Origin: an uncultured Anaerolineales bacterium
GTDB lineage: Bacteria > Chloroflexota > Anaerolineae > B4-G1
Direction of reading: 5' to 3'
Assembly: GCA_964474655.1 (NCBI GenBank)
Contig: CAYYTU010000002.1
Span: 64,095 to 128,094, forward strand
Length of the DNA: 64,000 bases
The notes under the pieces: generated by a model
What the model was told of the DNA's origin: nothing
Seen by the model: the letters and a program-made list of their open reading frames with translations, nothing else
The model's database searches: none
Translations under genes and position numbers: made by a program
In this document: piece by piece, positions 20,105-45,227 of the stretch
Layout of the letters: each line of letters opens with the position of its first letter
Position numbering within the stretch: the first letter of the stretch is position 1

Positions 20105-20285
20105 AACACACTTCCCCCAGCCCGGCAATGGGCAAACGAAGCAATTCCAAAGCCTCGTAGACACATCAGATTACCTACAAACGCGTTTACCGAGCGTATC
20201 AACCCCAGCACCATTTACCTTCTTCGCACCTGAGCACACTCTGTGGCATTGAAGGCACTTTCGCAGACGATTCGCTTCGAAAACC
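20105..20285 (-). repeat. Copy B of a ~150-180-bp dispersed leader repeat (parts 1 and 2), in minus orientation immediately upstream of the NMT1-like solute-binding gene.
   Basis: The reverse complement aligns at about 85% identity with 29071..29225. Shared blocks are CGAATCGTCTGCGAA, GCCACAGAGTGTGCTCAG, GAT(A/G)CGCTCGGTAAACGCG and GGTGCTTTGGAA(C/T)TG(C/T)TTCG. Confidence 0.7.
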
Positions 20286-20316
20286 ATCGATTACGCCAGA
20301 ACTTCACGGGCCTGCT

Positions 20317-22068
20317 CTATCCACTCCCATCACTACCGTCCACATCTTCGCCGTCTCCGCGAGGCGCCAGCCGAACGGTGACCGCGGGAAGGTCCATCGC
20401 CTCACGCACCTCCTCGGCGGCGGACTTGAGGACGCTCTCCATATCCAAGGATTCACGCAGTCGAGAGGCAATGTCGCCGACCAGGCGCTCGCGCGCCGCG
20501 CGACGCTGCGATTCGTCCATCAAGCGCAAGTTCTCAATCGTCTGCGCTACTTGCTCAGCCACGGCCTCCGCCATCTCGATCTCCTCCGCCACCCACAGGC
20601 GATGAGGACGCGTATCCCTCAAGGCCATAGTGCCGATCACCTGCCCACGCAGCTTCAAAGGCACGACAAGAGCAGAACACTGAGGTTTGTCCATCGGACT
20701 CTCCGAACGGGCCTCCCCCACAACCACCACGTCGCCCCGTTGTACGACCTGCTCTCGGGCCTGGCGGAGCTCATCGCCAATCTCCAACTCCACGTCCGGC
20801 CGCGTATAATCAACCCGGCCCACCTCCCGATTGGTCAGGAAGCCCTGCCACTCTTCTGCCAAGTAACGCCGATGGATGGCCTCCACCTCTTCCAGCGCCG
20901 CCTCGGTGCGACTAAACAGCTGCGCGTTATCGATGGCAATCGCGACCTGGTCAGCCATCATCTGGAGGGTCTCAACGTCGTCCTCGCTAAAAGCAGCCTC
21001 CTGAGTACTCTGGACGCTCAAAGCGCCCAAAACTTCCCCCCGTGAGCGCAAGGGTAACGCAATTTCCGAATGCGTATGCTCCAGAAGCGGCGGAGCAAAC
21101 CGCGCTGTCTCGTCAACTTTCGGCGTCACTTGAGCCTCACGACGGATGATGGCTTGTCCCACTGTGGTCGTCCCGTCCAGCTGCAATTGATAGTTCATCT
21201 CCTGTAATTCCCGACCGGCCCGGCCGGTCGCCGCCGCTAACGTGACCCCGCTCTGCGCCTCGTCGAGCAAGAAGCAGCCCACGTAATAAACGCCCATCGA
21301 GCTAAACCCCGATTGAACGCGATGAACTACCTCGTCCAACAGACGGTCCGGATCCAGGATGGAAGAGCTGGCCTGAGTGACGCTGAGCGACGAGGCCAGC
21401 TGCTTTGCGCGATGGTGTAACTCGCGCGTGGTCTTTTCCAGATCTGCGGTACGATCTTGAAGGTCCTCCTTCACCTCACGAGCATCGGCCAGCGCTTGCC
21501 CCCACCACCGACTCAGCGTCTGTGTGCTTAGCAACAACGCCAGCACCACGATCAAAAAATCGCCCCCCTCGCCAACCCAGTAACCCAACGTGGTCGAATC
21601 GGAGACATGTAAAGGGACTTTCCCCCAGGCAACAAACAGGGTATTGGTCGCATAAATCACAAGACTTAACCCGGTAAAAGCTGTCCCCAATCTCCGTCCC
21701 AACAAGATGAAGGTCACTGTGGGAAGCAAAACTAACCAGAGCCGCCCGCTGCCCGCCATACCACTGCGGGTGAGGATGAAGGCGCTCATCGTGTAGCCTG
21801 CTATCAAGAACATCAAAGCCCGTGTGCGGTAGTATAAACTCCGCCAGACTAAGGCCACTAAGGCAAGAGCCCAGGCTACAAAGAAAGGCACCATAAAGGC
21901 CAGACGCGCCGATCTTTCAAGACCACCCAGAAAACCAGATCCGATGAAGAAGAGATAAGCCAGCAGAGCGCCCCCGCCGACAACGCCGAGCCACAACAAG
22001 CTGTTCAAGAGCTCGACCCGTCGCTGCTGAACGTCACTCCCCCACTGAGAAATACCTTGTGTGCTCAT
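20317..22068 (-). CDS. Polytopic membrane protein (about 8 TM helices) with GAF, half-GAF and conserved tail. No output domain.
   Basis: 583-aa ORF. GAF signature ALPLRSRGEVLGALSVQSTQEAAFSEDD. Tail is QRRAARERLVGDIASRLRESLDMESVLKSAAEEVREAMDLPAVTVRL followed by GDGEDVDGSDGSG. Confidence 0.75.
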   Translation of the reverse strand: MSTQGISQWGSDVQQRRVELLNSLLWLGVVGGGALLAYLFFIGSGFLGGLERSARLAFMVPFFVAWALALVALVWRSLYYRTRALMFLIAGYTMSAFILTRSGMAGSGRLWLVLLPTVTFILLGRRLGTAFTGLSLVIYATNTLFVAWGKVPLHVSDSTTLGYWVGEGGDFLIVVLALLLSTQTLSRWWGQALADAREVKEDLQDRTADLEKTTRELHHRAKQLASSLSVTQASSSILDPDRLLDEVVHRVQSGFSSMGVYYVGCFLLDEAQSGVTLAAATGRAGRELQEMNYQLQLDGTTTVGQAIIRREAQVTPKVDETARFAPPLLEHTHSEIALPLRSRGEVLGALSVQSTQEAAFSEDDVETLQMMADQVAIAIDNAQLFSRTEAALEEVEAIHRRYLAEEWQGFLTNREVGRVDYTRPDVELEIGDELRQAREQVVQRGDVVVVGEARSESPMDKPQCSALVVPLKLRGQVIGTMALRDTRPHRLWVAEEIEMAEAVAEQVAQTIENLRLMDESQRRAARERLVGDIASRLRESLDMESVLKSAAEEVREAMDLPAVTVRLAPRGDGEDVDGSDGSG

Positions 22069-22158
22069 CCCTTCACCCTCACTTCTTAACCCACAATATC
22101 TTCTTCAATTATCACACAACTCCAAACAGGCCTCCCAACCAGAAACCGAGGCCATAGC

Positions 22159-24159
22159 CTAACGCAACCTCGCATCCACCCTCTCGCTCCTGCCTGCTGC
22201 CGAACCGCCATCACCCTCCAGGTTCAATTCAATCGAGACCTGGGGCACCTTCATCACCCGCGAAAGCTCCTCGGCGGTCGTGTGGAGCGTCCGTTCTATC
22301 GTAGCGGAGCGGCGGATACGATCCACCACCCGCCGCGTCTGCTGCTCCCTTTCCGCACGCCGCCGGGCGTCCTCCAACAGACGCGCCCGTTCCAAAGCCA
22401 CCGAGGCTTGATCGCTGAGAGCCTCATATAGGCGTAACGCTGATTCGGAGAAGGGGCCAGCGGCGTCTCGCAGGACGACCACTTGCCCAATCACGCGCCC
22501 GTGGGTACGGAGCGGGATGTTGACCAGGGCTCGGACGCCGGTGGTCTCGAAGACCTGCTTGGCGCTGTTGGGCAGCCGATCATCATCCTGCACGTCGGAG
22601 ACGGCCCAGAAGCTGCTGACCAGATCAAGGGGAAAAGGGCTTTCTGAGATCGGGAGCCGCACGCCGGGCTGGAACTGGGGCGTGCGATCTCGCCGCCAGA
22701 CGTCCAGATAGAGCAAGGCCTCCGGCGATCCATCCGGTGAAAGCTCGAAAGCGACCACCAGACAGCCATCGGCCCCCGTATCAACCACGGAGGAGACCAC
22801 GGCGTCGGCCACCTCGGAGGGCGTCGTCGCCGTGGTCAGTCGACGGCTGACCTTGTACATCGGCCGCGTCGCCTCCAGCAAGGAGATGCGGCTGGAGATG
22901 CGCCGGGCGTTCTGGATGGCGACTGCGATCTGGTCCGCCAGGCTCTGCAACACCTGGACGTCGGTGGCGTCGAAGGCCGCCACCTGATCGGACTGCACGT
23001 CGAGAACGCCCAACATCTGATCTCCGACGCTCAACGGAAGGGTCACCTCAGAGGCAACATCGGGCAAGAGGGGATGGGGATGATGGATCGCATCCTCCTC
23101 CACGTTGCGCGCGATCCGCACTCGATGGTGGAGGGCGGTCCATCCCACCATACTCGTCTCTGCTACCGGCAAACGGAGCCCTTCGGTCATCAGCTTGGGA
23201 CCGCTCGCCCCGGCGGCGGCCTTCAAATCGACCTGTTCCCCACTCTCATCCAGCAGGAAAATGCTCGCGAAGTAGACATCCAGACGCTCGCATATCAAAT
23301 CCACCGTCTTATGCACCAGATGGTCGGCGTCAAAGATCGACGTAATCGCTTGCCCTACCTCAAAGCTGGCCTCCATCTGCGTCACACGACGACGCAGCAT
23401 ATGCGTGCGCTCCTCCAACCGGGCTTGATGGGCTTCCAAATCCTGCGCCAGCTTCTGGCTGCGGGCCAGCGCGTTCGCCATCCGGGGCACCAGGTAATTC
23501 TGCAACAGCAACAACAACGCGCCCACCAGAAGGAAAAGCAGACTGGTCATCACCCAGGAGGCAGCGTCGCCGGTCTCGCCCGGCGGCGGGACGACCATCC
23601 CCGTTGAATAGGCCCACCCAAATCCCACCAGCGTAAGAAGGGAAAGTCCAAAAGCGATCAGTCCACTTCGATGGTCAAAGAAGAAGGGCGCCACCAGGGA
23701 AAATGCCAGTAAAAAAAGAACACCCCCGCCGCTGCGACCAGCAGTGGATAAGGCCACAACGCCCAACCCATAGAGCACCGTCAACAACGTCCAGACTCGA
23801 ACGTCATAGGAAACGCGAGACCAGAACGTAATCACAGCCAGCCCCGCATATGTGAGCACGTAAACTGGAATCAGCCACAGCCGATCGGAGCGGTAAGCGT
23901 TATAGGTCCCAATGACTACGACCAGACCACTGATCAACAGTAAAATCCGCAGCGCACCGTAGATCAGCCACTCCCGCCACTCTTTCATATCCCCTTCGAC
24001 GCGCTTTCCCATCGCGGATAATAACCCGGCATCCAGGCCCGGCGAAGGCTCCTCTACCTCTGACGGCGGTCCTTCCAGATCCTCCTCGCTTTCTGGCTCC
24101 AGAGGGGGGAAATCGGAGAAAAGCGCCTCCATTGAGTTTTTCAGTCGATCGTCATCCAT
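22159..24159 (-). CDS. Polytopic membrane protein with an acidic N-terminal peptide (MDDDRLKNSMEALFSDFPPLEPE), GAF, GAF-like module and conserved tail. No output domain.
   Basis: 666-aa ORF with GGGAG 11 nt upstream of the ATG. GAF signature LPLSVGDQMLGVLDVQSDQVAAFDATD. Tail is ARRRAEREQQTRRVVDRIRRSATIERTLHTTAEELSRVMKVPQVSIEL. Confidence 0.75.
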   Translation of the reverse strand: MDDDRLKNSMEALFSDFPPLEPESEEDLEGPPSEVEEPSPGLDAGLLSAMGKRVEGDMKEWREWLIYGALRILLLISGLVVVIGTYNAYRSDRLWLIPVYVLTYAGLAVITFWSRVSYDVRVWTLLTVLYGLGVVALSTAGRSGGGVLFLLAFSLVAPFFFDHRSGLIAFGLSLLTLVGFGWAYSTGMVVPPPGETGDAASWVMTSLLFLLVGALLLLLQNYLVPRMANALARSQKLAQDLEAHQARLEERTHMLRRRVTQMEASFEVGQAITSIFDADHLVHKTVDLICERLDVYFASIFLLDESGEQVDLKAAAGASGPKLMTEGLRLPVAETSMVGWTALHHRVRIARNVEEDAIHHPHPLLPDVASEVTLPLSVGDQMLGVLDVQSDQVAAFDATDVQVLQSLADQIAVAIQNARRISSRISLLEATRPMYKVSRRLTTATTPSEVADAVVSSVVDTGADGCLVVAFELSPDGSPEALLYLDVWRRDRTPQFQPGVRLPISESPFPLDLVSSFWAVSDVQDDDRLPNSAKQVFETTGVRALVNIPLRTHGRVIGQVVVLRDAAGPFSESALRLYEALSDQASVALERARLLEDARRRAEREQQTRRVVDRIRRSATIERTLHTTAEELSRVMKVPQVSIELNLEGDGGSAAGRSERVDARLR

Positions 24160-24196
24160 AAGCCCAAGCTCCCAGCCTCAAAACCGTCCCGTGTCT

Positions 24197-24475
24197 CTAT
24201 CGGCGCAATTTGCCGTTTCCCGAATCGGATTGATCGTCATCCCCTCCCCGGGAAGCGAGGGTCTGCCAACCCTGGCGCCACACGCCGCCACTCTCGGCCG
24301 ATTTCTCAGCAGTATGTTCGCGCCCTTTTTCCTCGTCATCGCCGCCAGAGGCACCATGCTCAACCGATCCATCCTCACCATCCCGTGACGAAGCTTCACG
24401 CTCTACCTCCGGCTCCGGAGGGGCGAAGTCAGAAAATAATTGCTCAAGCGAGCGTTTCAGATCGTCCTTAGTCAT
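24197..24475 (-). CDS. Small acidic protein (92 aa). Its N-terminal 23 aa duplicate the N-terminal peptide of the downstream GAF protein.
   Basis: The ATG at 24475 overlaps the parA stop (ATGA). MTKDDLKRSLEQLFSDFAPPEPE aligns with MDDDRLKNSMEALFSDFPPLEPE at 22159..24159. The rest is low-complexity Asp/Glu/Gly/Ser. Confidence 0.4.
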   Translation of the reverse strand: MTKDDLKRSLEQLFSDFAPPEPEVEREASSRDGEDGSVEHGASGGDDEEKGREHTAEKSAESGGVWRQGWQTLASRGGDDDQSDSGNGKLRR

Positions 24476-25332
24476 AATTCAGCCTCGTTAATGCGTCGCC
24501 GGGCGGCCTCGGAAGCTTGCGAAGGGACCTCGGACATCGCAACGTCCCCACCCTCCTCGTCGGCAGGAGACGCGAATTTAGCGATCAATTCGCTGGCGAC
24601 GGCCCGGTACTGCCCCGCGGACCGCGTCTTGGGGGCATACTCGGTAACCGGCAGCCCATAGGCCGGTCCCTCTCGCAGACGGGTGTCCACCTGTATCATC
24701 GTCTCGAACATCGCATCCCCAAAGTGCTTACGGAGGTATTCCAGCACCATCGGGTGAACCTTATTCCGCATATCGTACATCGTCACCAACAGCCGATAGG
24801 CCAGCTGAGGGTTCGTCTTCCGGCGCACCAGCCGCGTCATATCAAGCATCTGGCGGAGCGACTGGATCGCGTAATACTCACACTGGACCGGGATGATGAG
24901 CAGATCGGCCGCCGTCAGCGCATTGACCATCAGGGTACCGAAAGTGGGCGGCGAATCCACCACCACAAAATTGTAAAGCTGATGTCGCGTCTGCGCCAGA
25001 CTTTTCCTCAGCCGATATTCGTAGCCGGGACGCTCATAAAGCACCTTATCCAACACCACTAGCTCCTGATTGGCCGGCGCCAAGTCCAACCCATAGACCT
25101 CGGTCTCGCGCGTGATGGAGGCCAAAGAGTCTTGCCCCACCACCGCATCAGCCACTGTGCCATGTATCGATTCGGGGTCAAAGCCCAAGGAGCCAGTCAA
25201 GTGAGCCTGGGGATCGAGATCCACCATCGTGACCAGCTGCTCTTGCTCCGCCAATGCTCCTCCCAGCGACAGACAAGTGGTCGTTTTAGCCACGCCGCCT
25301 TTGCTGTTTGCAACGGCGATCACGGTCGTCAT
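24472..25332 (-). CDS. ParA/MinD-family P-loop ATPase.
   Basis: Deviant Walker A motif VANSKGGVAKTT. Walker B motif is VVVDSPP. The length of 286 aa is typical. The start overlaps the kinase gene stop by 4 nt. Confidence 0.85.
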   Translation of the reverse strand: MTTVIAVANSKGGVAKTTTCLSLGGALAEQEQLVTMVDLDPQAHLTGSLGFDPESIHGTVADAVVGQDSLASITRETEVYGLDLAPANQELVVLDKVLYERPGYEYRLRKSLAQTRHQLYNFVVVDSPPTFGTLMVNALTAADLLIIPVQCEYYAIQSLRQMLDMTRLVRRKTNPQLAYRLLVTMYDMRNKVHPMVLEYLRKHFGDAMFETMIQVDTRLREGPAYGLPVTEYAPKTRSAGQYRAVASELIAKFASPADEEGGDVAMSEVPSQASEAARRRINEAEL

Positions 25333-27788
25333 CGTTCCTCCTCGCCTACACGGGCACCATCCAAGGCCTCACCTCGCTCAGAACGAGTTTCCACCGGCAA
25401 ACTAAACGTAAAAGTCGATCCTACTCCAACCTCGCTCTCAACCCAGATTTTGCCCCCGTGCATAGCCACAAACTCCTTGCTCAAGGCCAGCCCCAACCCA
25501 GCGCCATCAGGGCGCCGACCATCCCCCAGCTGCCCCTGCTCAAACCGCTCAAAGATGCGCTCCTGATCCTCCAGCGGGATGCCACGCCCGGTATCGCTGA
25601 CGCTGACCAATACCCGTCCATCCTCTGACCAGGCCCGCACGGTGATACTCCCCTGATCGGTGAAGTTGGCCGCGTTCGTCAGCAACTTCAACAAGACCTG
25701 GCGGATCCGCGTTACATCCGCCTGCACGATGGGCAGGTCGGGCTCTATCTCCTGGAGCAGATCGATCTCCTTATCGCGCACCAGAGCGCTGGCGGTCGAC
25801 ATCACGCTGTTGATCATCTCAGATAGATCGAGGTCCTGAAAGTGGAGCTCCATCAGCCCCGCTTCAATCTGGGAGATGTCCAACAAATCGTTGATCAAGC
25901 CCAGGAGGTGCTGGCTGTTGGCGTGGATGATCTTGACGTCCTTCCGCTGCTGATCGTTTAGATCGCCGTCCAGCCCTTTCAGCATCAGGCGAGAGAACCC
26001 GATGATGTTCGTCAGCGGCTCGCGCAACTCGTGGCTCATATGGCCCAGGAAGCGGGATCGGAAGCGTTCCGCCTCGCGCAGACGTCGGGCCGTCTCTTTC
26101 TCCTTCCGGTAGATGCGAGCGTTCTCCAAGGCGATGGTAATCTGATTGGCCACGTTGCGCAGGACAGAGATGGCATCCTCGTCCATCTCCTCCGACTCGG
26201 TGTCCAGGATGTCGAGCACGCCGACGGTCTCATCGCCCAGCTTGAGCGGCAGCGCCGCCTCCACCTGGATATAGGGAGAGCCGAACAAGCCATCGGCCCG
26301 ATCGGAGCCCCAGCGAACGATGCGCGGCTCACCCTTCAGCCCCGCCTCGCCCACTGCTGAACCCTCTCCAAGCGGGACCGGCGCCGCTTTGAGCTCTTTC
26401 ACCCTCTCCCCTCCGCCGGTTCCCTCGCGGAGAAAAGCCTGTTCCCCACTTTCATCCAGCAAGTAAACTCCCACGTAACAATAATCGAACCGATCGTGGA
26501 TCAAGCGCACCACCTCGTGCAAGAGTTTGCTCGGCTCCAGGATCGAGGTCGCCGCCTGGCTGACCTCGACCGTAGCGGCCAGTTGAATGGCGCGACGCTG
26601 AATCTGGTAGTTAGCCCGCTGCAACATCTCCGTACGCTGAGCCACCTTGGCCTCCAGATCGTCGTAGAGGCTTTTCAGATCCGCCGTCATCTTGTTAAAG
26701 ACGTAAGTCAGGATGCCAATTTCATCGCGCGAGGTGACGGGCACCTGCTGATCCAGCTCGCCCTCCGCCACGCTGAGCGCCGACTCCGTCAACCGCACGA
26801 CCGGACGCGTGATCTGCCGCGTCACCACCGCAGCGACGACGGCCGTCCCCAGGGCCACCAAGAGCGTGGCCCCGATGATGGCAGCAGCGACGTTGTCCGC
26901 CGGAGCAAAGGCGGTCTCCTGCTTCTGCTCGGCCACCAACGCCAGCTCCAACGCCGGCATCCATTGATAGACGCCAATGACCGGGTCGCCGGCGTAATCA
27001 TCATACAAGCCCGCCACCCGCTCGCCATCCAGCGCGGCCTCAATGCCCTCGCTGCTCACGACCTCCCCTTGCGGCAGCGCTATGCCATCCTCATCCACCA
27101 GATAGACCCGGCTATCTGATCCCAGCGCTTGGGCCGTACCTAGCTCCTGGGCCAGGTCATCCAGATCAAGCCACCCGACCAGGACGCCTTCGTCCACACC
27201 ATCTGGACCACCAATCTCCTTTGCGACCACAGCCCCTACCGACGCCTCCGGCTCCAGCGTGATCATCCGAAAGATGGTCGTCTCGTCAGGCGTCAACGCC
27301 GGGATAGACGTCTCAACCTCACCCTCCAGCGACGGGTCCGTGGCTACCAAGGTTCGCCCCTGGTCATCAAGGAGAGCCACGCACCGAAAGGCCGTATCTT
27401 GGTCTAGCAACGCGCTCAGGTGTTGGCGCAAGCTGTCGCGAGCGCGCGCTTCGTCGCCTTCTGAACCAGCCTCCGCGGGCGCGTTAGCTTCCAGCAGAGT
27501 CGAGGCTTGCTGCCGCACGCCCGGCACCGCTGCCAGAAGCGCCAGGTGCTCAAGATGGCCTTCGCCCCAACACTGGATCTGAGACTCAGTCAGCACGGCC
27601 ACAGAGGAAAGTTTGGCGATAACTTCACGGCGGAGGTCACGTCGTTCGCGTCGAGTGGCGTACCAACTGATCGCACTGAGAGGCACAATCGCCAGGAGCA
27701 AGAAGGCCGTCAGCAACGTCCGGCCCAGCCCCCCGCGCATCCCCGTGGTAGGTACGCGAGGCCCTTTTGTCGACTCCGGCGTTGCCAT
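25329..27788 (-). CDS. Sensor histidine kinase: 2 TM helices, periplasmic Cache-like domain, HAMP, GAF, HisKA and HATPase_c. It is the only kinase in the cluster.
   Basis: H-box is HMSHELREPLTNIIGF. ATPase motifs are DTGRGIP and GAGLGLALSKEFV. GAF signature is ALPLKLGDETVGVLDILDTE. The Cache block is shared with the gene at 16148..19060. Confidence 0.85.
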   Translation of the reverse strand: MATPESTKGPRVPTTGMRGGLGRTLLTAFLLLAIVPLSAISWYATRRERRDLRREVIAKLSSVAVLTESQIQCWGEGHLEHLALLAAVPGVRQQASTLLEANAPAEAGSEGDEARARDSLRQHLSALLDQDTAFRCVALLDDQGRTLVATDPSLEGEVETSIPALTPDETTIFRMITLEPEASVGAVVAKEIGGPDGVDEGVLVGWLDLDDLAQELGTAQALGSDSRVYLVDEDGIALPQGEVVSSEGIEAALDGERVAGLYDDYAGDPVIGVYQWMPALELALVAEQKQETAFAPADNVAAAIIGATLLVALGTAVVAAVVTRQITRPVVRLTESALSVAEGELDQQVPVTSRDEIGILTYVFNKMTADLKSLYDDLEAKVAQRTEMLQRANYQIQRRAIQLAATVEVSQAATSILEPSKLLHEVVRLIHDRFDYCYVGVYLLDESGEQAFLREGTGGGERVKELKAAPVPLGEGSAVGEAGLKGEPRIVRWGSDRADGLFGSPYIQVEAALPLKLGDETVGVLDILDTESEEMDEDAISVLRNVANQITIALENARIYRKEKETARRLREAERFRSRFLGHMSHELREPLTNIIGFSRLMLKGLDGDLNDQQRKDVKIIHANSQHLLGLINDLLDISQIEAGLMELHFQDLDLSEMINSVMSTASALVRDKEIDLLQEIEPDLPIVQADVTRIRQVLLKLLTNAANFTDQGSITVRAWSEDGRVLVSVSDTGRGIPLEDQERIFERFEQGQLGDGRRPDGAGLGLALSKEFVAMHGGKIWVESEVGVGSTFTFSLPVETRSERGEALDGARVGEEER

Positions 27789-27813
27789 ATCCCCTCAATT
27801 CACCGGCCCACAG

Positions 27814-28230
27814 CTAATCTAACGACCAGACAGATTCTCCTTGAAGAATGTCACGAACTTGATCGGGGAAACGATCGGGGTCGAGAGGTTTGCCGATGAA
27901 GCCGTCGAAGCCGGCCTCACGCGCACGCTCCATATTATCCATCGAAGCATCAGCCGTCACCGCGACGATAAGCGTATCCTCAAAGCGAGGATGGGAGCGT
28001 AATTCGCTCAATGCCTCGTAGCCATCCGCCTCCGGCAAGAAGATATCCATCAAGATCAAGTCAACTTTCGGAAGCGCGTCAGCAAACTCCAACACCTGCC
28101 ATCCGGAAGCTTTCCACTCACAATCCTTCACGCCCAAGTAGGCCAGCAGGCGCGTGATCAACACAAAATTCTGGAAGTTATCCTCGACGACGACAACCGT
28201 CGCATCCTCAGGTCGCACACTCATAATCAC
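27814..28230 (-). CDS. Single-domain response regulator (CheY-like receiver).
   Basis: Receiver motifs: VVVVEDN, LILMDIFLPEADG, and a conserved Lys in GFIGKP. The GTG start at 28230 overlaps the upstream regulator's stop. An alternative ATG is at 28224. Confidence 0.8.
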   Translation of the reverse strand: MIMSVRPEDATVVVVEDNFQNFVLITRLLAYLGVKDCEWKASGWQVLEFADALPKVDLILMDIFLPEADGYEALSELRSHPRFEDTLIVAVTADASMDNMERAREAGFDGFIGKPLDPDRFPDQVRDILQGESVWSLD

Positions 28231-28610
28231 CCACCGACCCGTTCCAGCGCCTCTTCAATCTGACGCGGAAGCCGATCGATGTCGATCGGCTTGGGGATGT
28301 AACCATCGCAACCGGCCTTTAACGTCTTCTCACGATCGCCTTTCATCACGTTGGCCGTAACGGCCAGGATGGGGACGCCCTCCAGCGCGGGCACCGCGCG
28401 AAAGCGCCCGGCCAGGTCATAACCGTCCACCTCCGGCAAGTTGATATCCAGCAGGATCAAATCGGGGTCCACCTGTGAAGCTTCCTCTAACCCAGAGCGC
28501 CCATCGACGGCCTCTAAGACAGTATATCCTTCCGCCTCCAACACCCGCCTCACTAACAACCGATTCTCCGGGTTGTCCTCCACATACAATATTCGAGCTT
28601 TATCGCTCAT
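28227..28610 (-). CDS. Single-domain response regulator (CheY-like receiver).
   Basis: Motifs are ILYVEDNPENR, LILLDINLPEVDG and GYIPKP. The preferred start MSDKARIL at 28610 has GGGAGAGG 6 nt upstream. The tool start at 28625 has no ribosome-binding site. Confidence 0.8.
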   Translation of the reverse strand: MSDKARILYVEDNPENRLLVRRVLEAEGYTVLEAVDGRSGLEEASQVDPDLILLDINLPEVDGYDLAGRFRAVPALEGVPILAVTANVMKGDREKTLKAGCDGYIPKPIDIDRLPRQIEEALERVGG

Positions 28611-28662
28611 CAACGCCTCTCCCATGCATCTGTTTCAGGCCGGCTTAAGGAATTCCAAAGCT

Positions 28663-28730
28663 TTAAGCGATTATATCAAATTAAGCAATCAGCGACAAGA
28701 GGTGGTTTGTTACAAATTAGTTACAATCAA
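28663..28730 (-). promoter_or_regulatory. Probable sigma-70-type promoter with an extended -10 (TTGTCG, 17-nt spacer, TGATATAAT) and upstream direct repeats TTGTAAC-N4-TTGTAAC. It drives the RR-RR-kinase-ParA-GAF operon.
   Basis: On the minus strand: -35 is the reverse complement of 28693..28698, extended -10 is the reverse complement of 28670..28678, and the repeats are at 28709..28726. This AT-rich island sits in a GC-rich context about 50 nt upstream of the regulator start. Confidence 0.55.
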
Positions 28731-28737
28731 GCCTCGC

Positions 28738-28959
28738 TCACGGGCCGCCTCGACCATCGTTCTGGTGTTTCTGCGCGTCGAGCCATTGCTCAAAATCGAC
28801 TTTTTCGACCCGCCACAGGCGTCCCACTTTGTAAGCAGGCAAAGTGCCCTCTTTGATCCAGCGACGCACCGTGTAGACCGAGACTTGTAACACATCGGAA
28901 ATATCTTGCGGGGTCATAAAAGGACGCTGTCCCGTATCTTCCAAGGTCGTGGTAGACAT
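28738..28959 (-). CDS. Small helix-turn-helix DNA-binding protein (excisionase/MerR-like HTH_17 type). Candidate regulator of the downstream signalling operon.
   Basis: Contains TPQDISDVLQVSVYTVRRWIKEGTLPAYKVGRLWRVEKVDFEQWL. The ATG (MSTTTLED) at 28959 has GGAGG 8 nt upstream. A plausible promoter TTGGAA-18-TATATT lies upstream. Confidence 0.65.
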   Translation of the reverse strand: MSTTTLEDTGQRPFMTPQDISDVLQVSVYTVRRWIKEGTLPAYKVGRLWRVEKVDFEQWLDAQKHQNDGRGGP

Positions 28960-29070
28960 CGAACGCCTCCTGAATGCAGTTACTGATGAACCTAGCAACA
29001 GTTAGTATAATATAGCATAAGACAACCTTACTTTCCAATAGGAGATTAGTACTATACCACCGCTGGGTTC

Positions 29071-29225
29071 TCGAAACGAATCGTCTGCGAAGGCACCTTC
29101 AACGCCACAGAGTGTGCTCAGATGCGAACAAGACAAACGAATCTGGGGGTGATGCGCTCGGTAAACGCGCCTCTCGGCAAGCTAATGCGTCCAGGGTGCT
29201 TTGGAACTGTTTCGTCTGTCCCCGC
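29071..29225 (+). repeat. Copy A of the dispersed leader repeat (part 1 at 29071..29172, part 2 at 29181..29225), in the 5' leader of the lipoprotein gene.
   Basis: Aligns with the reverse complement of 20105..20285 and with split copy C (33548..33575 and 33926..33990). It is in the same orientation relative to the downstream gene in all three cases. Confidence 0.7.
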
Positions 29226-29324
29226 TACGGCTGGTTTGCCGCCAAGAAAAATATGGTACAATAGCCAGCGTGTGAGACACCAACCGCATTCGCCACGGCG
29301 AACGATAGATACCAGGAGGTTCCT

Positions 29325-30035
29325 GTGCAAAAGAGACGTTTGCTCTTAGCTGCTGCCGCGCTCATCATCGTGACGTTGGCCTGTGGATTACCTGCCGCGC
29401 CAACAGTCACCCCTGAGGAAAGAGCCGGGACGGGAGAACCGACGCCCACGTCGCAGGCGACACCAGACCAACCTACGCCCAGCGACACCCCCGCTCCCAC
29501 CGAGACGGCCACGCCCACCGAACCGGCGACCGAAGCGCCTACCCCAACGCCTGAGCCCACGTCGGTGCTTTCCTGTACTATCGACATTGCCCCCGAGCTT
29601 GCGCCGCGGCTCAACGCTCACCCCGCCAAACTGCGGGCGCTGGGTTGCCCCATCGACCCCGCCCAACAGACCTGGGCCGCCGAGCAGCGCTTCCAGCTCG
29701 GGCGTATGTTCTGGCAAGAAGATACGGGAGAGATCCATCTGGTCTACGACGACGAAACGTACCAGATAGAGCCAAACCAGTACCAGGAATCTTCCGCCCA
29801 ATACCCGTGCCCGGAGGAAGGTCCACCGCCGCCCAGCCTGGAGATGCCCAAACGCGGCTTCGGCTGGCACTGGTGTAACACACCCAACGTCCAGGAGAAG
29901 ATTGGCTGGGCGCTGGAAGAGGAGATCGGCTACGAAGCCGCCTGGCAAACGTTCGAGAACGGCCACGCGCTATCCAGCCACCTCAACCACGTCTTCATCT
30001 TCTACAACGACGGCACCTGGGATTACATTGAGTAA
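29325..30035 (+). CDS. Secreted lipoprotein with a Pro/Thr-rich linker and a C-terminal Cys-containing domain of unknown function.
   Basis: GTG start with GGAGG 6 nt upstream. Signal peptide and lipobox LLAAAALIIVTLAC. TPEPT-type low-complexity linker. Probable extended -10 TGGTACAAT at about 29252..29260. Confidence 0.65.
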   Translation: MQKRRLLLAAAALIIVTLACGLPAAPTVTPEERAGTGEPTPTSQATPDQPTPSDTPAPTETATPTEPATEAPTPTPEPTSVLSCTIDIAPELAPRLNAHPAKLRALGCPIDPAQQTWAAEQRFQLGRMFWQEDTGEIHLVYDDETYQIEPNQYQESSAQYPCPEEGPPPPSLEMPKRGFGWHWCNTPNVQEKIGWALEEEIGYEAAWQTFENGHALSSHLNHVFIFYNDGTWDYIE

Positions 30036-30087
30036 CGACGGTGAAGCCCAGGTCCCGACGGACAAGCCAGTGGGACATGCCGACCCT

Positions 30088-30936
30088 ATGACCTCACAAG
30101 AATGGTTCCTGTATACGCTACGCTGCGCTGATGATACCTTCTATACCGGTATCACCACCGACCTCGCGCGTCGCGTGGCGGAGCACAACGCCGGACGAGG
30201 CGCCCGCTACACCACCGGTCGGCGCCCGGTCAAGCTGATCGGAGCCTGGCGCTTCCCCGACCGCAGCGCGGCCCAAAGCGCCGAGTTCGCTTTCAAGAAG
30301 CTCTCTCAAGCACGGAAGCTTTCAACGGTGGCCCGCGAACGTCCCTTCCGGAACGCCCCATTCCACCACGATAAGCAAGTACCCGAGGAGATGCGGGGCA
30401 CCATCCGCTTCTGCCCCCGCTGCGGGGGTCTGCTGCACGAGCGCAGAGAGCAGGCCCCTGCAAACGAGAGCCGAACCCGCCTCGTCTGCGCCGGCTGCGG
30501 GCGGATCCACTACCGCAACGCCAAGCCTTGCGCCGGCGCCCTGATCGTGCGCGACGGGAAAGTGTTGCTGATCAAACGCGCCATCCAGCCCTTTCGCGGT
30601 CACTGGGATATTCCCGGCGGCTTCCTGGAGGTAGACGAACATCCAGAGGACGGCGTCATCCGAGAAGTGGAGGAGGAAACCGGGCTGACCATCCGCCCAA
30701 CCGGGCTGTTTGGCTTCTATATGGACCGCTACGGCGAAGAGGGCGTCCATTGCCTCAACATTTACTTCACAGCTTGCGTCATCGGCGGTCAGGAGCACAC
30801 CAACGATGAAGTAACCGAGATAGCCTGGTTTGGCCCCGACGAATTGCCCGAGCGAATCGCCTTCAGCCATGCCCACGACGTCCTGAAAACCTGGGCCCAG
30901 TCGATGGAAGAGGCCTCATCAGCGAGCACGACGTGA
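30088..30936 (+). CDS. GIY-YIG nuclease-domain / C4 zinc-ribbon / NUDIX hydrolase fusion protein (NudC-like architecture).
   Basis: N-terminal block FLYTLRCADDTFYTGITTDLARRVAEHNAGRGARYT is a GIY-YIG motif. Zinc ribbon is CPRCGG...CAGCG. NUDIX box is GGFLEVDEHPEDGVIREVEEETGL. The ATG at 30088 is in-frame within tool ORF 29902..30936. Confidence 0.75.
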   Translation: MTSQEWFLYTLRCADDTFYTGITTDLARRVAEHNAGRGARYTTGRRPVKLIGAWRFPDRSAAQSAEFAFKKLSQARKLSTVARERPFRNAPFHHDKQVPEEMRGTIRFCPRCGGLLHERREQAPANESRTRLVCAGCGRIHYRNAKPCAGALIVRDGKVLLIKRAIQPFRGHWDIPGGFLEVDEHPEDGVIREVEEETGLTIRPTGLFGFYMDRYGEEGVHCLNIYFTACVIGGQEHTNDEVTEIAWFGPDELPERIAFSHAHDVLKTWAQSMEEASSASTT

Positions 30937-32600
30937 AACAAATCCCGCATCCCGCGCCCCAGGCCTTTCTGCAACGCACTCGTCACTTCCTGAGCGACCT
31001 ATACATCCACTTCTTGATCTCCGAGACGGTGGTGATGGTCACGCTGGCCCTCTTCGTGGGGCTGGGAGCAGGCTTCAGCGCCGTGGCCCTCCGCCGGCTG
31101 ATCGACCTCGCCCACCACTTCTTCTTCGGCACGCTGGGCCAATGGCTCAGCTTTATGGGCACTTACTACATCATCATCCTCCCCGCGCTGGGAGGCCTGC
31201 TGGTCGGCATATTGATCACCTTTTTGGCCCCAGAGGCCAGGGGCGCTGGTGTAGGCAACGTGATGGAAGCCATAGCCGGCTATGGGGGGCGAATTCGCCC
31301 CCTGGTGGCCGTCGTAAAGCCCGTCGCCACCGCACTCTGTCTCGGCAGCAGTGGATCGGCCGGCCGCGAAGGCCCCATCGTCCAGACCGGGGCTGCCATC
31401 GGCTCCAGCCTCGGGCAGGTGCTCCATCTATCCGACGAGCGAACCAAGAGACTGGCCGCCTATGGCGTGGCAGGCGGCATTGCTGCCACCTTCAACGCCC
31501 CGCTCACCGGCGCGATATTCGCGCTAGAGATCCTGCTGACCGAGTTCGGCTTGATGCAATTCAGCGGGGTAGTGGTCTCCTCCGTCACCGCCAGCGTGAT
31601 TGGACACGCTTATTTCGGGAACGTCCCGGCCTTTTCACTTCCCACCTCTTACTACAACCCCATTGCCGCCGGAGAGCTGCCGATCTACGGCCTGCTCGGC
31701 GTGATGGCCGCCTTCGTCGGCGTCGGTTTCACCCACACCTTCTACAAAATCGACCATCTCTTCCAATCCTGGTCCACCCCCTCATATCTCAAACCGATGA
31801 TCGGCGGGCTACTGGTTGGAGTGATCGGGTTCTGGTTCCCGCAACTCTTCGGCGTGGGGTACGAAACAATCGAGAACGTGCTTTCCGGCCGCTTCTCCCT
31901 CAACCTCATCGTCGTCCTGGGCACGCTCAAGATTTTGACCACAGGGCTCACCATCGGCTCCGGCAGCTCGGGTGGCGTCTTCGCCCCGCTGCTCTTCGTC
32001 GGCGCACTGCTCGGCGGCCTCTTCGAGCATATCGTGGCCCCGTGGCTCCCGACCAGCGCATCGACGTCGTCCCCCTACGTCCTCGTGGGTATGGCCGCCG
32101 TCTTCGGCGCCGCCAATCGCGCGCCCATCACGGCCATCCTGACGCTCTTCGAGATGTCACGCGGCTACCACGTGATCTTACCGCTTATGTTCTCCACCGT
32201 CATCAGTGCCACCATCGCCCACAACCTCTACGACCAGAGCATCTACACCGTCAACCTGGAGCATCACGAGATCGACATTCGACATCTGCGCGGGATGCTC
32301 CGCCGCGGCGACATCATCCAAGCCTACTCCCACACCCACCTGGACGAGCAAGCCCGGCTGGCCGCCCAGATCGTGGAGATCACCCTGCGAAACCATCACT
32401 ATGCAACCGGCAAGACGCTGAAGAAATTGAACTTGCCTTCGGACTGCCTCATCGCCTCGATCCGCCGGGGTAACCAGATACTCATCCCTCGCGGCGAGAC
32501 CCGCCTGGAAGCCGGCGACGTGATCGTTGCCCTGACCGCAGATGAGAACCAGACCGCACTGAGGACGCACCTGACCCATGGAGAAGAAAATGACTTCTGA
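30933..32600 (+). CDS. ClC-family chloride/proton channel with a C-terminal TrkA-C-like regulatory domain.
   Basis: ClC selectivity motifs GSAGREGP and GIFAP(L)LF, with about 10 TM helices. The GTG start overlaps the upstream stop (GTGA). The C-terminus GETRLEAGDVIVAL is TrkA-C-like. Confidence 0.8.
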   Translation: MKQIPHPAPQAFLQRTRHFLSDLYIHFLISETVVMVTLALFVGLGAGFSAVALRRLIDLAHHFFFGTLGQWLSFMGTYYIIILPALGGLLVGILITFLAPEARGAGVGNVMEAIAGYGGRIRPLVAVVKPVATALCLGSSGSAGREGPIVQTGAAIGSSLGQVLHLSDERTKRLAAYGVAGGIAATFNAPLTGAIFALEILLTEFGLMQFSGVVVSSVTASVIGHAYFGNVPAFSLPTSYYNPIAAGELPIYGLLGVMAAFVGVGFTHTFYKIDHLFQSWSTPSYLKPMIGGLLVGVIGFWFPQLFGVGYETIENVLSGRFSLNLIVVLGTLKILTTGLTIGSGSSGGVFAPLLFVGALLGGLFEHIVAPWLPTSASTSSPYVLVGMAAVFGAANRAPITAILTLFEMSRGYHVILPLMFSTVISATIAHNLYDQSIYTVNLEHHEIDIRHLRGMLRRGDIIQAYSHTHLDEQARLAAQIVEITLRNHHYATGKTLKKLNLPSDCLIASIRRGNQILIPRGETRLEAGDVIVALTADENQTALRTHLTHGEENDF

Positions 32601-33522
32601 GACCTCACCCCCTTCTCGGCCCATTCGCCTGATCGTTCACGGCGGCGCCTGGGACATTCCACCCGAGCTCCACCGACCACACGTCGAAGGCTGCACAGAG
32701 GCGGCAAGAGCAGCCCAGGAGGTGCTCGAGCGCGATGGAACCGCGCTGGAGGCCGTCGAGACCGCCGTGCGTCGGATGGAGGACGATCCCACCTTCGACG
32801 CCGGGCGTGGCTCCTTCCTCAACGCCGAGGGCGAGGCTGAGCTGGACGCTATTATTATGGACGGCCGCGATCTCAACCTGGGCGCGGTGGCGTCCGTGCG
32901 TCGCATCCGCCATCCGATCACCCTGGCGCGGCTGATTATGACCGAGTGTAAGCACGCGCTGCTCGTCAGCGAGGGCGCCGAGGCCTTCGCCCGTCAGCAC
33001 GGGCTGACGCTTTGCGCCAACCAGGATCTGATCACGACGCGCGAAAGGGAACGCTGGCGCGCCGAGCGCGACAGCGAGACCACACAGGACCTCTTCGGCG
33101 ACACCGTCGGGGCGGTGGCGCGGGACGCCTACGGGAACGTGGCGGTCGGCACCTCAACCGGCGGCACGTTCAAGAAACATCCGGGGCGCGTGGGCGATTC
33201 GCCCTTGATCGGCTGCGGGAGCTACGCCGACAACCGCATCGGCGCCGCCTCGGCCACCGGCGAAGGCGAGGCGCTAATGAAAGTGGTCATCAGCAAGACC
33301 GTGTGCGATCTGATGGCACAGGGACTGACGGCTCAGGAGGCCGCCGACGCTGCCATCCAGCTGCTGATCGAACGCACTGGCGGGCGTGGCGGCCTGATCG
33401 TGCTGGGCACACGCGGCGACATCGGCCTTGCGCACAACACGCCATACCTCGCTCACGCCCACGTCACCACCGACGGCGACATCGCAGCCGGCCTCATGTC
33501 CTCTCCGGAGGCCCAGCTGTGA
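32590..33522 (+). CDS. iaaA: Isoaspartyl peptidase / L-asparaginase (Ntn-hydrolase, plant-type asparaginase family).
   Basis: Contains HGGAW, the autoproteolysis site GTVGAVARD and GDSPLIGCG. The preferred start MTSET at 32590 has GGAGAAG upstream. The tool start is 32578. Confidence 0.8.
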   Translation: MTSETSPPSRPIRLIVHGGAWDIPPELHRPHVEGCTEAARAAQEVLERDGTALEAVETAVRRMEDDPTFDAGRGSFLNAEGEAELDAIIMDGRDLNLGAVASVRRIRHPITLARLIMTECKHALLVSEGAEAFARQHGLTLCANQDLITTRERERWRAERDSETTQDLFGDTVGAVARDAYGNVAVGTSTGGTFKKHPGRVGDSPLIGCGSYADNRIGAASATGEGEALMKVVISKTVCDLMAQGLTAQEAADAAIQLLIERTGGRGGLIVLGTRGDIGLAHNTPYLAHAHVTTDGDIAAGLMSSPEAQL

Positions 33523-33615
33523 GACCCAAGTGCTGCGCCCCCTTCGGCTGAAGTCTGATACGCTCGGTAAACGCGCCTGTAGAATTTTGATAGACGAAAT
33601 CGGTAACGAGGTTGA

Positions 33616-33824
33616 GGCACGGTCAGGAGACCGGCCCCAGCGGGTAAAAGTGCATTAGGGTAAAAGTCGCACCTAATCGCTCAAAGCCACCGTCTCGGGG
33701 GCGTCCGACACGATTTTTGTGCCCTAAACGCCCTCGGGGACGAGGGCTGTGAACAGTGGAAAAGTCGGTGTGTCACTTTTACCTCAATGCGTAAAAGTGC
33801 TCTGGCCGGTCTCCCGACCGTGCC
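33616..33824. ncRNA. Candidate structured non-coding RNA domain (about 210 nt) closed by a 21-bp long-range helix.
   Basis: GGCACGGTCAGGAGACCGGCC (33616..33636) is the reverse complement of GGCCGGTCTCCCGACCGTGCC (33804..33824) with one mismatch. Internal complementary pairs include GGTAAAAGTG / CACTTTTACC, CGGGGGCGT / ACGCCCTCG and GCCCTC / GAGGGC. It lies in a 1.1-kb ORF-poor lower-GC intergenic region. The strand is undetermined. Confidence 0.4.
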
Positions 33825-34620
33825 AGCGGTACTCTCGACAGAAATGAAACACAACCCAATCAATCTAATCTGACGAAAGAAATCACGTCTTTACCGAACT
33901 TGAACGTCAAAACTCATTAGGCAATCGATTGCGTCTAGGGTGCTTGGGAACTGCTTCGCTTGCCCATCCGACAGGCTTCGGCCTGAGCCCAGCCGAACGG
34001 CTCAGGATGACTATCGAGGGATCAACTTCGTTGAAATCCCGTTGTAGTGCTAAGGAACCTCGTAATAACCTCCCCCTTTTCAGATTGAGCCAAAATTACC
34101 CTCCGACGAGCTTCGGATGATTTTGGCGACCTCCGAGTGCAAAGCCACTCGAAATCGCCCTTCGACGCTCAGGGCAATTTCTCGCTAGACAGTGAGCAAG
34201 AAAGTCATCTGCTCGTCGTTCCTAAAGATGGTACCATAGTACCATCTTGACCCCGTAACTACGCCCCCTCTCTGTCCGTTAGTCAAAATGAATAGGTCGA
34301 CAATGGCAACATAACATTCCGGGTCTCCAGGATTTCGCTGGCCGGCAACTCGGGCTAGCTCAGAGGGGGTGTTCCACCCCCGTATCGGGTCCGAAATTGG
34401 GCCTGGCCCCCAGATATGGGACGCGGGTGACACACCCGCTGTGAGCACCCTTGAGCACCACGCAAAATCCCAAAGAGCCAACATTCCAAGCCACCAGCGA
34501 TCAAATACTGAGGAACGCGTCTCCCCCTATGGGACCCTATCACAAAACTTAAAACACGCGCCCAAGTAGATTTGGGTCGAAAAGACCCCGCACCAAGAAG
34601 TAAAAGATAAGGAGGATCAG

Positions 34621-35556
34621 ATGACAACGGTATTGATTGTACTGACAATCGCGTCCTTGGTCGGAGGAGGCCTGGTTCAAGTGGCCGACGAATCCGGCCC
34701 AGGCAGCCCGCTCTATGAGCTGAATCGAAGAATCGAGGCGGTCCAGATCGAGATGACGACCAATCCCACGGCCAGGACCGAGCTCCAGACGAATCTGGCC
34801 GAAGAGCGACTAGAAGAGGCCGAAGCATTAGCCCAAGCGGGTGAAATAGAAAACGCTCGCCAGGCCCTGCAGATCTATGATGAGCAGGTCTCTCACACCA
34901 CACAGACCGACGAAGTCGATGAAGCTGCGTTGCTTGGGTCCCTCGCCAACCACGAGGAACAGTTGGACCGAATATACAACGCCTTAGCAGATCGCGCCAG
35001 AGAGGACGATACCTCCGGACAGCCCGATAACGAACCCCCAAATCAGGAAGAAGAGGAAGGGGAAGGGGAAGAAGAAGAAGAGAACGAAAGTGAGCTCCCC
35101 ACCGATTCACCCTGGTGCACCGGTGAATGGGAACATCCCGTAGCCAGCCAGATGGCCTCCTACCACGACGTGAGCTACAACGAAGTCATCGGGTGGTTCT
35201 GCAACGAGGGCTACGGCCTCGGCGAAATCAAATTGGCGTTGCAAACGAGCCAACTGCTCGGATCCACAGACGTACTGACCGACACCAGCGCCGGTGCGCT
35301 TCTGACGATGAAGAGGGAGCTAGGTGGCTGGGGAGACGTATGGCAAGATTTCGATCTGATCGGTCAGCCCGATGAGGCTGCCCCCCCCGAAGAAGTCGGT
35401 CCACCCGAGGAAGTCGGGCCTCCAGATGAAGCTGGCCCACCTGACGACGCCGGCCCTCCCGACGAAGCCGGGCCCCCAGACGAAGCTGGCCCACCTGACG
35501 GCGCTGGCCCACCTGACGACGCCGGGCCCCCCGCTAAAGGCGGTCCCAATAACTGA
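34621..35556 (+). CDS. Membrane-anchored protein with a coiled coil, an acidic stretch, a Cys-containing domain and C-terminal GPPDEA hexapeptide tandem repeats.
   Basis: AAGGAGG lies 7 nt upstream of the ATG. N-terminal TM segment VLIVLTIASLVGGGLV. Eight 18-bp DNA tandem repeats at 35395..35545 encode (E/D)(E/A)(V/A)GPP-type repeats. Confidence 0.6.
   Translation: MTTVLIVLTIASLVGGGLVQVADESGPGSPLYELNRRIEAVQIEMTTNPTARTELQTNLAEERLEEAEALAQAGEIENARQALQIYDEQVSHTTQTDEVDEAALLGSLANHEEQLDRIYNALADRAREDDTSGQPDNEPPNQEEEEGEGEEEEENESELPTDSPWCTGEWEHPVASQMASYHDVSYNEVIGWFCNEGYGLGEIKLALQTSQLLGSTDVLTDTSAGALLTMKRELGGWGDVWQDFDLIGQPDEAAPPEEVGPPEEVGPPDEAGPPDDAGPPDEAGPPDEAGPPDGAGPPDDAGPPAKGGPNN
35395..35545 (+). 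repeat. About 8 tandem 18-bp repeats inside the coding sequence (GG(C/G)CC(A/C)CC(T/C)GA(C/G)GA(A/C)G(C/T)(C/T)).
   Basis: Direct read: ggtccacccgaggaagtc / gggcctccagatgaagct / ggcccacctgacgacgcc and so on. Confidence 0.8.
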
Positions 35557-38593: not shown

Positions 38594-39883
38594 TCAATCC
38601 CTTAGACGCCATAACACCTCTCGCGCTGCCTCCACCGTGCGCTCGATATCCTCGTCGGAGTGAGCCAGGGAGATAAACCCGGCCTCGAACTGCGACGGCG
38701 CGATGTAGACGCCGCGCTCCAGCATCGCGTGGAAGTAACGCCCGAAGCGCTCCGTATCCGACACCTTGGCGCTCTCGTAATCGGTCACCGGCTCCGGGCT
38801 GAAGAAGTTGGAGAACATCGTGCCCACGCGCGTCTGGTAGATCGGCACGCCGGCCTCCTCGGCGGCCTCGCCGACGCCCGCGGCCAGCTTCGCCGCCTTC
38901 TGCTCAATCTCGTCGAAGACACCCAGCTCGCGCAGCACCTTCAGCGTCTCAATGCCGGCCGTCATCGCCAACGGATTTCCGGAGAGCGTACCCGCCTGAT
39001 ACATCGGCCCGGCCGGCGCCACCGTCTCCATAATCTCTCGCTTGCCCGCGTAGGCCCCGACGGGCAGCCCGCCGCCGATCACCTTGCCCAGCGTCGTCAC
39101 GTCCGGCTCGATGTCGTACAGCTCCTGCGCGCCGCCGTAGGCCACGCGGAAGCCCGTCATCACCTCGTCGAAGATCAACACCGCGTCGTGCGCCTCGGTC
39201 AACGCCCGCAGCCCCTCCAAGAAGCCCTCCTCCGGCGGGACGACGCCCATATTCCCGCCCACCGGCTCCACGATGACCGCCGCGATCTCCTCTGGGTATG
39301 TCTCGAAGGCCGCCTCCACCGCCTCCAAGTCGTTGAAGGGCGCGGTGAGCGTATCCTGCGCCGTGCCCGCCGGCACGCCCGGGCTATCCGGCAGGCCGAG
39401 CGTCGCCACGCCGGAGCCAGCCTGCACCAGCAGGAAGTCGGCGTGGCCGTGGTAGCAGCCCACGAACTTGACGATCTTGTCGCGCCCGGTGTAGGCCCGG
39501 GCCAGGCGCAGAGCGCTCATCGTGGCCTCGGTGCCGGAGTTGACGAAGCGCACCATCTCCACCGCTGGCATGGCCTCGATCACCAGCTCGGCCAATTCCG
39601 TCTCCAGCTCGGTCGGCGCGCCGTAACTGGTGCCGCGCTCCACGGCCCGCTTGAGCGGCTCGGCCACCCGGGGGTGCGCGTGCCCCAAAATCAACGGTCC
39701 CCACGAGAGGACATAATCGACGTACCGGTTGCCGTCGGCGTCGTAGACGTACGGCCCCTCGCCGCGCTCAATGAAGAGCGGCTGCCCACCGACGGCGCTG
39801 AACGCCCGCGCGGGGCTATCCACCCCACCGGGAATGACCCGCTGGGCCTCATCGAAAAGCTCTACCGATCGTTGAATCTCCAT
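38594..39883 (-). CDS. hemL: Glutamate-1-semialdehyde 2,1-aminomutase.
   Basis: Class-III aminotransferase motifs, including the PLP-lysine region [21 protein letters not shown] (MEIQRS) at 39883 has AGGAGAG upstream. The tool's 5' extension is spurious. Confidence 0.9.
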
Positions 39884-39893
39884 TCTCTCTCCT

Positions 39894-40937: not shown

Positions 40938-41020
40938 GACTTGTTTCCCAATGCTCCAGGCGGGTCTGCCACCCGCGTCTCTTCAGCGGCGGGGTTACAA
41001 CCCCCGCCGGAGCAGAAAAA

Positions 41021-42088: not shown

Positions 42089-42091
42089 CGG

Positions 42092-43922: not shown

Positions 43923-43935
43923 CCTCACCTCCGCC

Positions 43936-45200: not shown

Positions 45201-45227
45201 CCTATCCTCTCCATCATCTTTTGTGCG

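Follow-up and report, generated by a model that had tools for sequence, protein, structure and literature searches.

The window analysed here, a 64,000-nucleotide stretch of DNA from an uncultured Anaerolineales bacterium, carries on its minus strand (1–27800) a long array of paralogous sensor genes with GAF, HAMP, dCache, MASE, and HisKA domains, whose shared domains yield many direct-repeat families of 60–75% identity (D1–D8) and in whose middle lies a gene for an NMT1/THI5-like lipoprotein. Beyond the array are a minus-strand HTH_17 (excisionase/MerR-like) gene of 73 aa (28738–28959), a plus-strand lipoprotein gene with a GTG start codon at 29325, an asparaginase gene and, after a 1.1-kb non-coding stretch, a gene for a DUF5667 protein (start 34621). 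The C-terminus of the DUF5667 protein contains GPP(D/E)(E/D)A-type repeats encoded by eight in-frame 18-nt tandem units (35350–35547), and these units overlap the listed start of a 1012-aa DUF11 ORF. A minus-strand heme/siroheme biosynthesis cluster follows at 38594–50067 (class III aminotransferase, AhbA/B-like siroheme decarboxylase, radical SAM/SPASM protein, HemD-methylase fusion, and glutamyl-tRNA reductase), and the sole gathering-level Rfam match in the window is a full-length Cobalamin riboswitch (RF00174; 57135–57276, minus strand; 54.3 bits, E 1e-10).

Three of the spacers between these genes contain copies of a short non-coding element. A preliminary description had singled out three dispersed look-alike stretches, and they prove to be a real repeat, far above chance expectation. 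Copy A (29064–29234, plus strand; nhmmer E 3.5e-56) and copy B (20117–20286, minus strand; nhmmer E 2.5e-55) are full length at ~170 nt and are also recovered by blastn, which aligns them without gaps at 79.5% identity over 156 nt (E 4e-35). A repeat finder returns the same inverted pair (20130–20285 and 29066–29221; 156 nt, 79%), and inspection by eye extends the homology slightly further, to the limits given here. Copy C (plus strand) comes in two parts, the first (33555–33582) consisting of the block GATACGCTCGGTAAACGCGCCTGTAG, which is 93% identical to B by the repeat finder and 95.7% identical to A over 23 nt (blastn E 1e-4), and the second (33921–33978) beginning with GCAATCGATTGCGTCTAGGGTGCTTGGGAACTGCTTCGCTTGCCCAT and detected by both nhmmer (E 4.6e-8) and blastn (84.6% identity to A over 39 nt, E 7e-7). 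The three loci named in the preliminary description therefore stand with corrected limits, the stretch 20105–20129, for example, being flank and Shine-Dalgarno sequence. The high identity reported there was likewise real, but the figure of about 85% over 110 bp was too generous, the best 110-nt stretch reaching 82%.

Both of the conserved blocks described for the repeat occur as one exact match in each of A, B, and C: GATRCGCTCGGTAAACGCG is found exactly three times, against 0.04 occurrences expected by chance, and GCTTKGGAAYTGYTTCG three times, once per copy. The first 45-mer of the element at its 5′ end is confined to A and B, and copy C thus lacks the 5′ ~85 nt. All copies are intergenic and without a conserved ORF, their edges are sharp, and the sequences flanking them are unrelated to one another, with left flanks of CCGC and TCGA. 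The G+C content of the element (0.49–0.56) is below that of the window (0.63). An nhmmer profile that combines A and B with a relative’s ortholog of A detects no other copy in the 64 kb; the three copies seen directly all lie inside 14 kb, with none in the remaining 50 kb of the window. No match to the element was found by blastn among plasmid and phage sequences, and exact-core scans of GTDB genomes (596 Gb), JGI metagenomes, and IMG/VR, collections that do not hold the source genome, returned chance matches in coding sequence only.

Each copy is in sense orientation to the gene that follows it (3/3), as had been proposed, and all three downstream products carry N-terminal signal or lipobox-like sequences, in agreement with the earlier view that they are exported. 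The settings differ in other respects. Copy B occupies the spacer between the stop codon of a GAF/MASE sensor gene (20317) and the ATG of the NMT1/THI5-like lipoprotein gene (20104) on the minus strand; it starts 30 nt past the GAF stop codon and ends 12 nt before the NMT1 start codon, abutting the Shine-Dalgarno sequence. The position of that start is itself a revision, the true ATG being at 20104 and the ORF listing having a GTG at 20164. Copy C starts 33 nt past the asparaginase stop codon and ends ~640 nt upstream of the DUF5667 gene, inside the 1.1-kb non-coding stretch. What lies between its 3′ edge and that gene (33979–34620) is ~640 nt of non-coding sequence with a G+C content of 0.53 and a longest plus-strand ORF of 66 aa. 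No tRNA gene lies near the copies.

Copy A fills a divergent spacer, with its 3′ edge 90 nt from the start codon of the plus-strand lipoprotein gene and its other edge 105 nt upstream of the HTH_17 gene (start 28959, minus strand), to which it is antisense. An extended −10-like box read from the sequence, TGGTACAAT, is located between A and the lipoprotein gene (29254–29262, plus strand). It is kept in the closest relative, and a comparable box, TGCTAGAAT, sits upstream of the lipoprotein ortholog in a more distant one (L022); the promoter consensus scan did not call TGGTACAAT, which has no −35. A second extended −10-like box, TGGTATAGT, faces the HTH_17 gene from just outside the 5′ edge of A (29051–29059, minus strand), within 24 nt that are identical in the closest relative, and another promoter-like site is present on the minus strand at 29038–29009. 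We infer that the TGGTACAAT and TGGTATAGT boxes are promoters; if so, copy A would not be transcribed with either gene.

The preliminary description treated the repeat as bipartite, its two parts being separated in copy C by about 350 bp. The split is genuine and measures 338 nt (33583–33920, plus strand), but the bipartite architecture is a product of a nested insertion in C and not a feature of the element. With the 338 nt removed, the two parts of C join into an ungapped alignment that matches A at 60 of 74 positions and B at 59 of 74. The insert folds as a whole into one long imperfect hairpin (z −6.5), with TAG at both junctions as its direct repeat (3 nt only) and with no inverted repeat beyond a near-terminal TTTTGA/TCAAAA, and it holds no ORF over 60 aa and no Rfam match. 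An assembly contig from the same strain ends within it, at 33706. The insert is probably a separate, unrelated MITE-like element that landed in C, and the contig end suggests that it too is multi-copy. Its insertion point corresponds to 29176/29177 in A, 3 nt from a contig break at 29180, although the k−1 geometry of the assembly (see below) places the divergence behind that break at ~29209/29210.

Comparison with relatives separates copies that are shared from copies that are not. The closest relative (L026/L028) is a JGI metagenome that is syntenic with the window at ~82% DNA identity over 9 kb. It carries an ortholog of A (L026A, at 9039–9203 of L026, with a counterpart, L028A, in L028) as well as the adjoining HTH_17 gene. 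In L022, whose lipoprotein ortholog is 52% identical at the amino acid level, nhmmer finds no copy of A, and the HTH_17 gene is missing between the response-regulator and lipoprotein genes. The L026 locus also contains a 496-nt insert (9237–9732) between the TGGTACAAT box and the lipoprotein gene that the window lacks. This insert is moderately structured (fold z −2.4), contains a hairpin resembling a terminator (GGCCCGC...ACGGGCTTTTT), and matches no Rfam family; it may represent an sRNA gene or a further repeat. It has no similarity to the insert in copy C; alongside this comparison, 24 nt matching the sequence that follows the asparaginase gene in relatives (E 0.16) were recorded.

Copy B is absent from the orthologous site in L026 (by nhmmer) and in L031 and L034 (by eye), whose NMT1 proteins are 83%, 74%, and 66% identical to that of the window. 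The spacer from GAF stop codon to NMT1 ATG measures 214 nt in the window, 112 nt in L026, 10 nt in L031, and 54 nt in L034. Because the relatives’ spacers are short, the ancestral state of the site appears to be a tight GAF–NMT1 operon junction, with copy B as a lineage-specific filling. Comparison of the empty L026 site with the ends of the element gives faint and inconsistent similarity (p = 0.002 against L026A, 0.11 against B, and a further value of 0.66), and a partial deletion in L026 therefore stays as a minor alternative to an insertion in the lineage studied here. At the third locus, L027 is not syntenic with the window past the asparaginase gene (33523 onward in the window, 4243–6242 in L027), which places copy C at a synteny break. 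Past its asparaginase gene L027 carries a minus-strand gene of the URO-D family with no homolog in the window by tblastn.

Between A and its ortholog in L026, divergence is uneven. Copy A and L026A are ~64% identical over the whole element, while the flanks are 84% identical (28940–29058); inside the element, identity is 62% in the 5′ part, 85% in the centre (29118–29157), and 55% in the 3′ part. The 5′ part that differs so much between A and its ortholog is 90% identical between A and B within this genome, and the block GATRCGCTCGGTAAACGCG, identical in the three window copies, reads GACGCCGGGCAAACAGG in L026A. Such mosaic divergence fits weak constraint combined with exchange among repeat copies, rather than a conserved functional core.

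Short-read assemblies of the same organism offer a view of the element beyond the window, and they stand in here for the genome-wide copy count proposed in the preliminary description. In Logan contigs, assembled by the de Bruijn method with k = 31, every 31-mer occurs once (PMC12424806). Same-strain contigs from three sequencing runs, found via exact proteins, align to the window by megablast at 99.96–100% identity: one runs through 9097 and ends at 20207, one of 8,866 bp has both ends in view (20257–29122), one covers 29180–33706, and one begins at 34409 and runs on through 38556. Among the six contig ends in this ~35 kb, four fall in A or B, one in the insert of C, and one in the spacer just downstream; the last, at 34409, suggests that the spacer 33979–34620 holds more repeated sequence. 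No 31-mer is repeated within the window, and the longest exact word shared by A and B is 18 nt, so the branches that end these contigs must arise from sequence elsewhere in the samples.

The positions of the ends are informative. The middle contig enters B by exactly 30 nt (k−1) from its 5′ edge (20286 to 20257), and the next contig begins 30 nt short of 20178. Another sequence identical to B over 20286–20178 (~109 nt), beginning with the first base of the element, is thereby implied. The same reasoning at A implies a sequence identical to it over 29093–29209 (~117 nt). The overlap contains many positions at which A differs from B, so the two implied twins cannot be one copy, and the geometry of the breaks fits repeats better than allelic SNPs. 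From the assembly graph, and not from sequence seen directly, we infer at least two further near-identical copies elsewhere in the genome or the community, which points to at least five copies in total, some of them very recent.

The element does not have the terminal inverted repeats of a classical MITE: its termini (GGTTYTCG... and ...GGCTGG) do not form an inverted pair. A sub-terminal inverted repeat of 6–11 nt (CGAARC...GYTTCG) extends in B to 11 nt at 82% (20137–20147/20269–20279), and A has no inverted repeat of 7 nt or more. TGG is found on each side of A, B, and L026A and may belong to the element, the relatives’ empty sites being too diverged to fix the junctions. Among 18 of the larger ORFs compared with Pfam, drawn from 16–50 kb and from a minor part of 1–16 kb, none encodes a transposase, and in the same set no reverse transcriptase, integrase, or TnpA/TnpB domain was found. 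Diversity-generating retroelement repeats, integron attC sites, IS200/IS605-type ends, and retron ncRNAs were considered and set aside on this ground and because the copies are intergenic, have differing left flanks, and form no sub-terminal hairpins. With no terminal inverted repeats, no stable hairpin, and no unambiguous target-site duplication, the element is assigned here only, in a broad sense, to the small intergenic repeats of bacteria.

A protein-coding or pseudogene origin was also rejected. One frame is open across A and would encode a CxxC-like peptide, but B has a stop codon in it and L026A is frameshifted, with one +1 and one −2 indel relative to A. The 36 mismatches between A and B are spread over the codon positions as 13/12/11, and concatenated six-frame peptides of the element have no match at E ≤ 10 in 5.8e9 predicted proteins.

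The preliminary description favored a cis-regulatory RNA leader. Such a leader, comparable to a riboswitch or an attenuator, would form part of the 5′ UTR, where a structure responsive to a ligand or a protein would control the genes for exported proteins. The uniform sense orientation invites this reading, as does the placement of B, which ends at the Shine-Dalgarno sequence 12 nt from the NMT1 start codon. A structure can also be drawn: when copies A and B are combined with L026A and L028A, RNAalifold proposes two helices with a total of five pairs changed on both sides. The closing helix (CGAAGCGA/..GCUUCG) exchanges a G-C for an A-U pair between copies B and A, and the internal helix (ACAGAGUG/CGCUCGGU) shows two double changes from AU to GC when the window is compared with L026. 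However, the structure came from the same four sequences, which biases the built-in controls, and a column-shuffle null was therefore run. Shuffled alignments give 4.9 ± 1.8 compensatory pairs against 5 in the real one, so that covariation, which had been put forward as a check on the leader, stands at the null level in this four-sequence alignment; the consensus energy is at z −1.6 (p ~0.06–0.07). The interior of the consensus structure shifts once the near-duplicate L028A is dropped, and these two results together leave no significant structural signal. Nor do single copies fold better than dinucleotide shuffles (z +0.80 for A, +0.51 for B), and in copy C the 5′ strand of each proposed helix is missing. 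Rfam 15 has no relevant match for A, B, or C in gathering-level or E-value scans, and a scan of the element found no terminator, expression platform, or sigma-70-like or ECF promoter. The context also counts against a leader: neither the three NMT1 orthologs nor the lipoprotein ortholog of L022 have the element upstream, the start codons lie 90, 12, and ~640 nt from A, B, and C, and at A a conserved extended −10-like box intervenes between element and gene. The leader reading is accordingly not supported, and we regard it as very unlikely.

Two other explanations dispense with RNA structure. The element could be a regulator-binding or promoter cassette that carries DNA sites for the HTH_17 protein (excisionase/BldC-like) or for a response regulator of the neighboring sensor cluster and whose spread wires genes into one regulon. 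Copy A fills the gap between divergent promoter-like boxes beside the HTH_17 gene, an arrangement that is the same in L026, all three downstream genes encode exported proteins, and blocks that are identical within the genome and different in the relative are what would be expected of sites that co-evolve with a genome-specific factor. Yet 170 nt is long for an operator, and the element has no internal palindromes, no clear repeated sites, and no sigma-70-like promoter. An ECF promoter built on the GGAAC of the second block was considered and rejected, since no −10 partner is conserved at the spacing of ECF promoters and the ortholog L026A reads GGATC instead. Moreover, B lies in an operon spacer whose ancestral length was 10–54 nt, C is broken and lies ~640 nt away from the gene it precedes, divergence of the orthologous copy outpaces that of its flanks, and the cassette leaves the assembly breaks unexplained; we judge it unlikely. 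The alternative of a local, non-mobile duplication, in which a piece of the A spacer was copied two or three times nearby by ectopic recombination or template switching, without machinery of its own and without further copies in the genome, draws on the clustering of the visible copies, on the lack of terminal inverted repeats, of a clear target-site duplication, and of a transposase in the scanned ORFs, and on the finding that A is ancestral and common to L026 while B and C are not. Against it, the same unit, identically bounded at its 5′ and 3′ ends, would have had to be copied in three separate events, the k = 31 breaks require outside sequences identical to A and to B over more than 100 nt each (~117 and ~109 nt), and the mosaic pattern suggests exchange with other copies. 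We hold this reading, too, to be unlikely.

On balance we lean toward the view that the element is a small (~170-nt), non-coding, lineage-restricted dispersed repeat without terminal inverted repeats, which is being or was recently copied, has since eroded, and was hit in copy C by a second, MITE-like element. Of the three candidates that the preliminary description listed, this corresponds to the degenerate mobile element, and it is the one that fits best. We hypothesize that the element is copied to new intergenic sites where it then decays, as a selfish or neutral, non-autonomous sequence, and that copying could occur in trans through a transposase or recombinase encoded elsewhere, or through recombination between copies. 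The shared sense orientation would then reflect the tolerance of insertions in transcribed spacers rather than a leader function, and effects on neighboring genes, such as the lengthening of an operon spacer by B and its abutment on the NMT1 ribosome-binding site, would be by-products. There is a slim chance that the element is instead a sense-inserting mobile module with a function of its own, which would move without terminal inverted repeats, serve as a binding platform for the adjacent HTH_17/BldC-like protein or the neighboring two-component systems, or as a loosely structured RNA, rewire genes for exported proteins into one regulon, and be a specific target of the hairpin-type element.

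If the favored reading of a decaying dispersed repeat is correct, the element adds one more lineage-specific family of small repeats, from the poorly studied, uncultured Anaerolineae-like Chloroflexota, to which the names of its homologs assign the organism. The element would flag where the genome is plastic, through an operon spacer that is filled or empty, a break in synteny, and insertions nested in one another, and it would account for the fragmentation of this organism’s short-read assemblies at these places. The case also counsels caution, in that position and orientation alone are insufficient to annotate such repeats as riboswitch-like leaders. Interest would be greater only if the copies regulate their neighbors or if their mode of movement does without terminal inverted repeats.

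Among known systems, the element resembles riboswitches and other cis-regulatory leaders collected in Rfam in lying upstream of genes, in sense, at a length of ~150 nt and with a closing helix that can be drawn. It departs from them in having no family match and no significant structure or covariation, in not being kept at orthologous genes, and in its variable distance from start codons. A second point of comparison is provided by bacterial MITEs, of which Correia/CREE elements in Neisseria, ERIC, RUP, Nezha, and Chunjie have been reviewed (PMC3184786). Like MITEs, which are often co-transcribed with their neighbors, the element is 100–200 nt long, intergenic, and without an ORF; it is lineage-restricted, with filled and empty sites between close relatives, and it is tied to broken synteny and to points at which short-read assemblies break. 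Unlike MITEs, it has neither terminal inverted repeats nor a long stable hairpin, no unambiguous target-site duplication flanks it, and the number of its copies seems low. By contrast, the 338 nt that interrupt copy C do look like a classical MITE.

Pneumococcal BOX elements and the bcr repeats of the Bacillus cereus group are further intergenic families (PMC3184786). The element does not share the box A/B/C architecture of BOX, nor does it have the tandem structure of mycobacterial MIRUs, and similarity in sequence to any of the three families is not expected. BOX, bcr, and MIRU repeats are not known to be delimited by terminal inverted repeats, and MIRUs occur in operon spacers between co-oriented genes, in sense orientation. 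Like these three, the element is modular or mosaic, with parts that are unequally conserved between copies, and it sits in spacers in sense orientation, where the expression of neighbors would be altered only incidentally. Likened by behavior and not by sequence, BOX elements, bcr repeats, and MIRUs thus appear to be its closest parallels.
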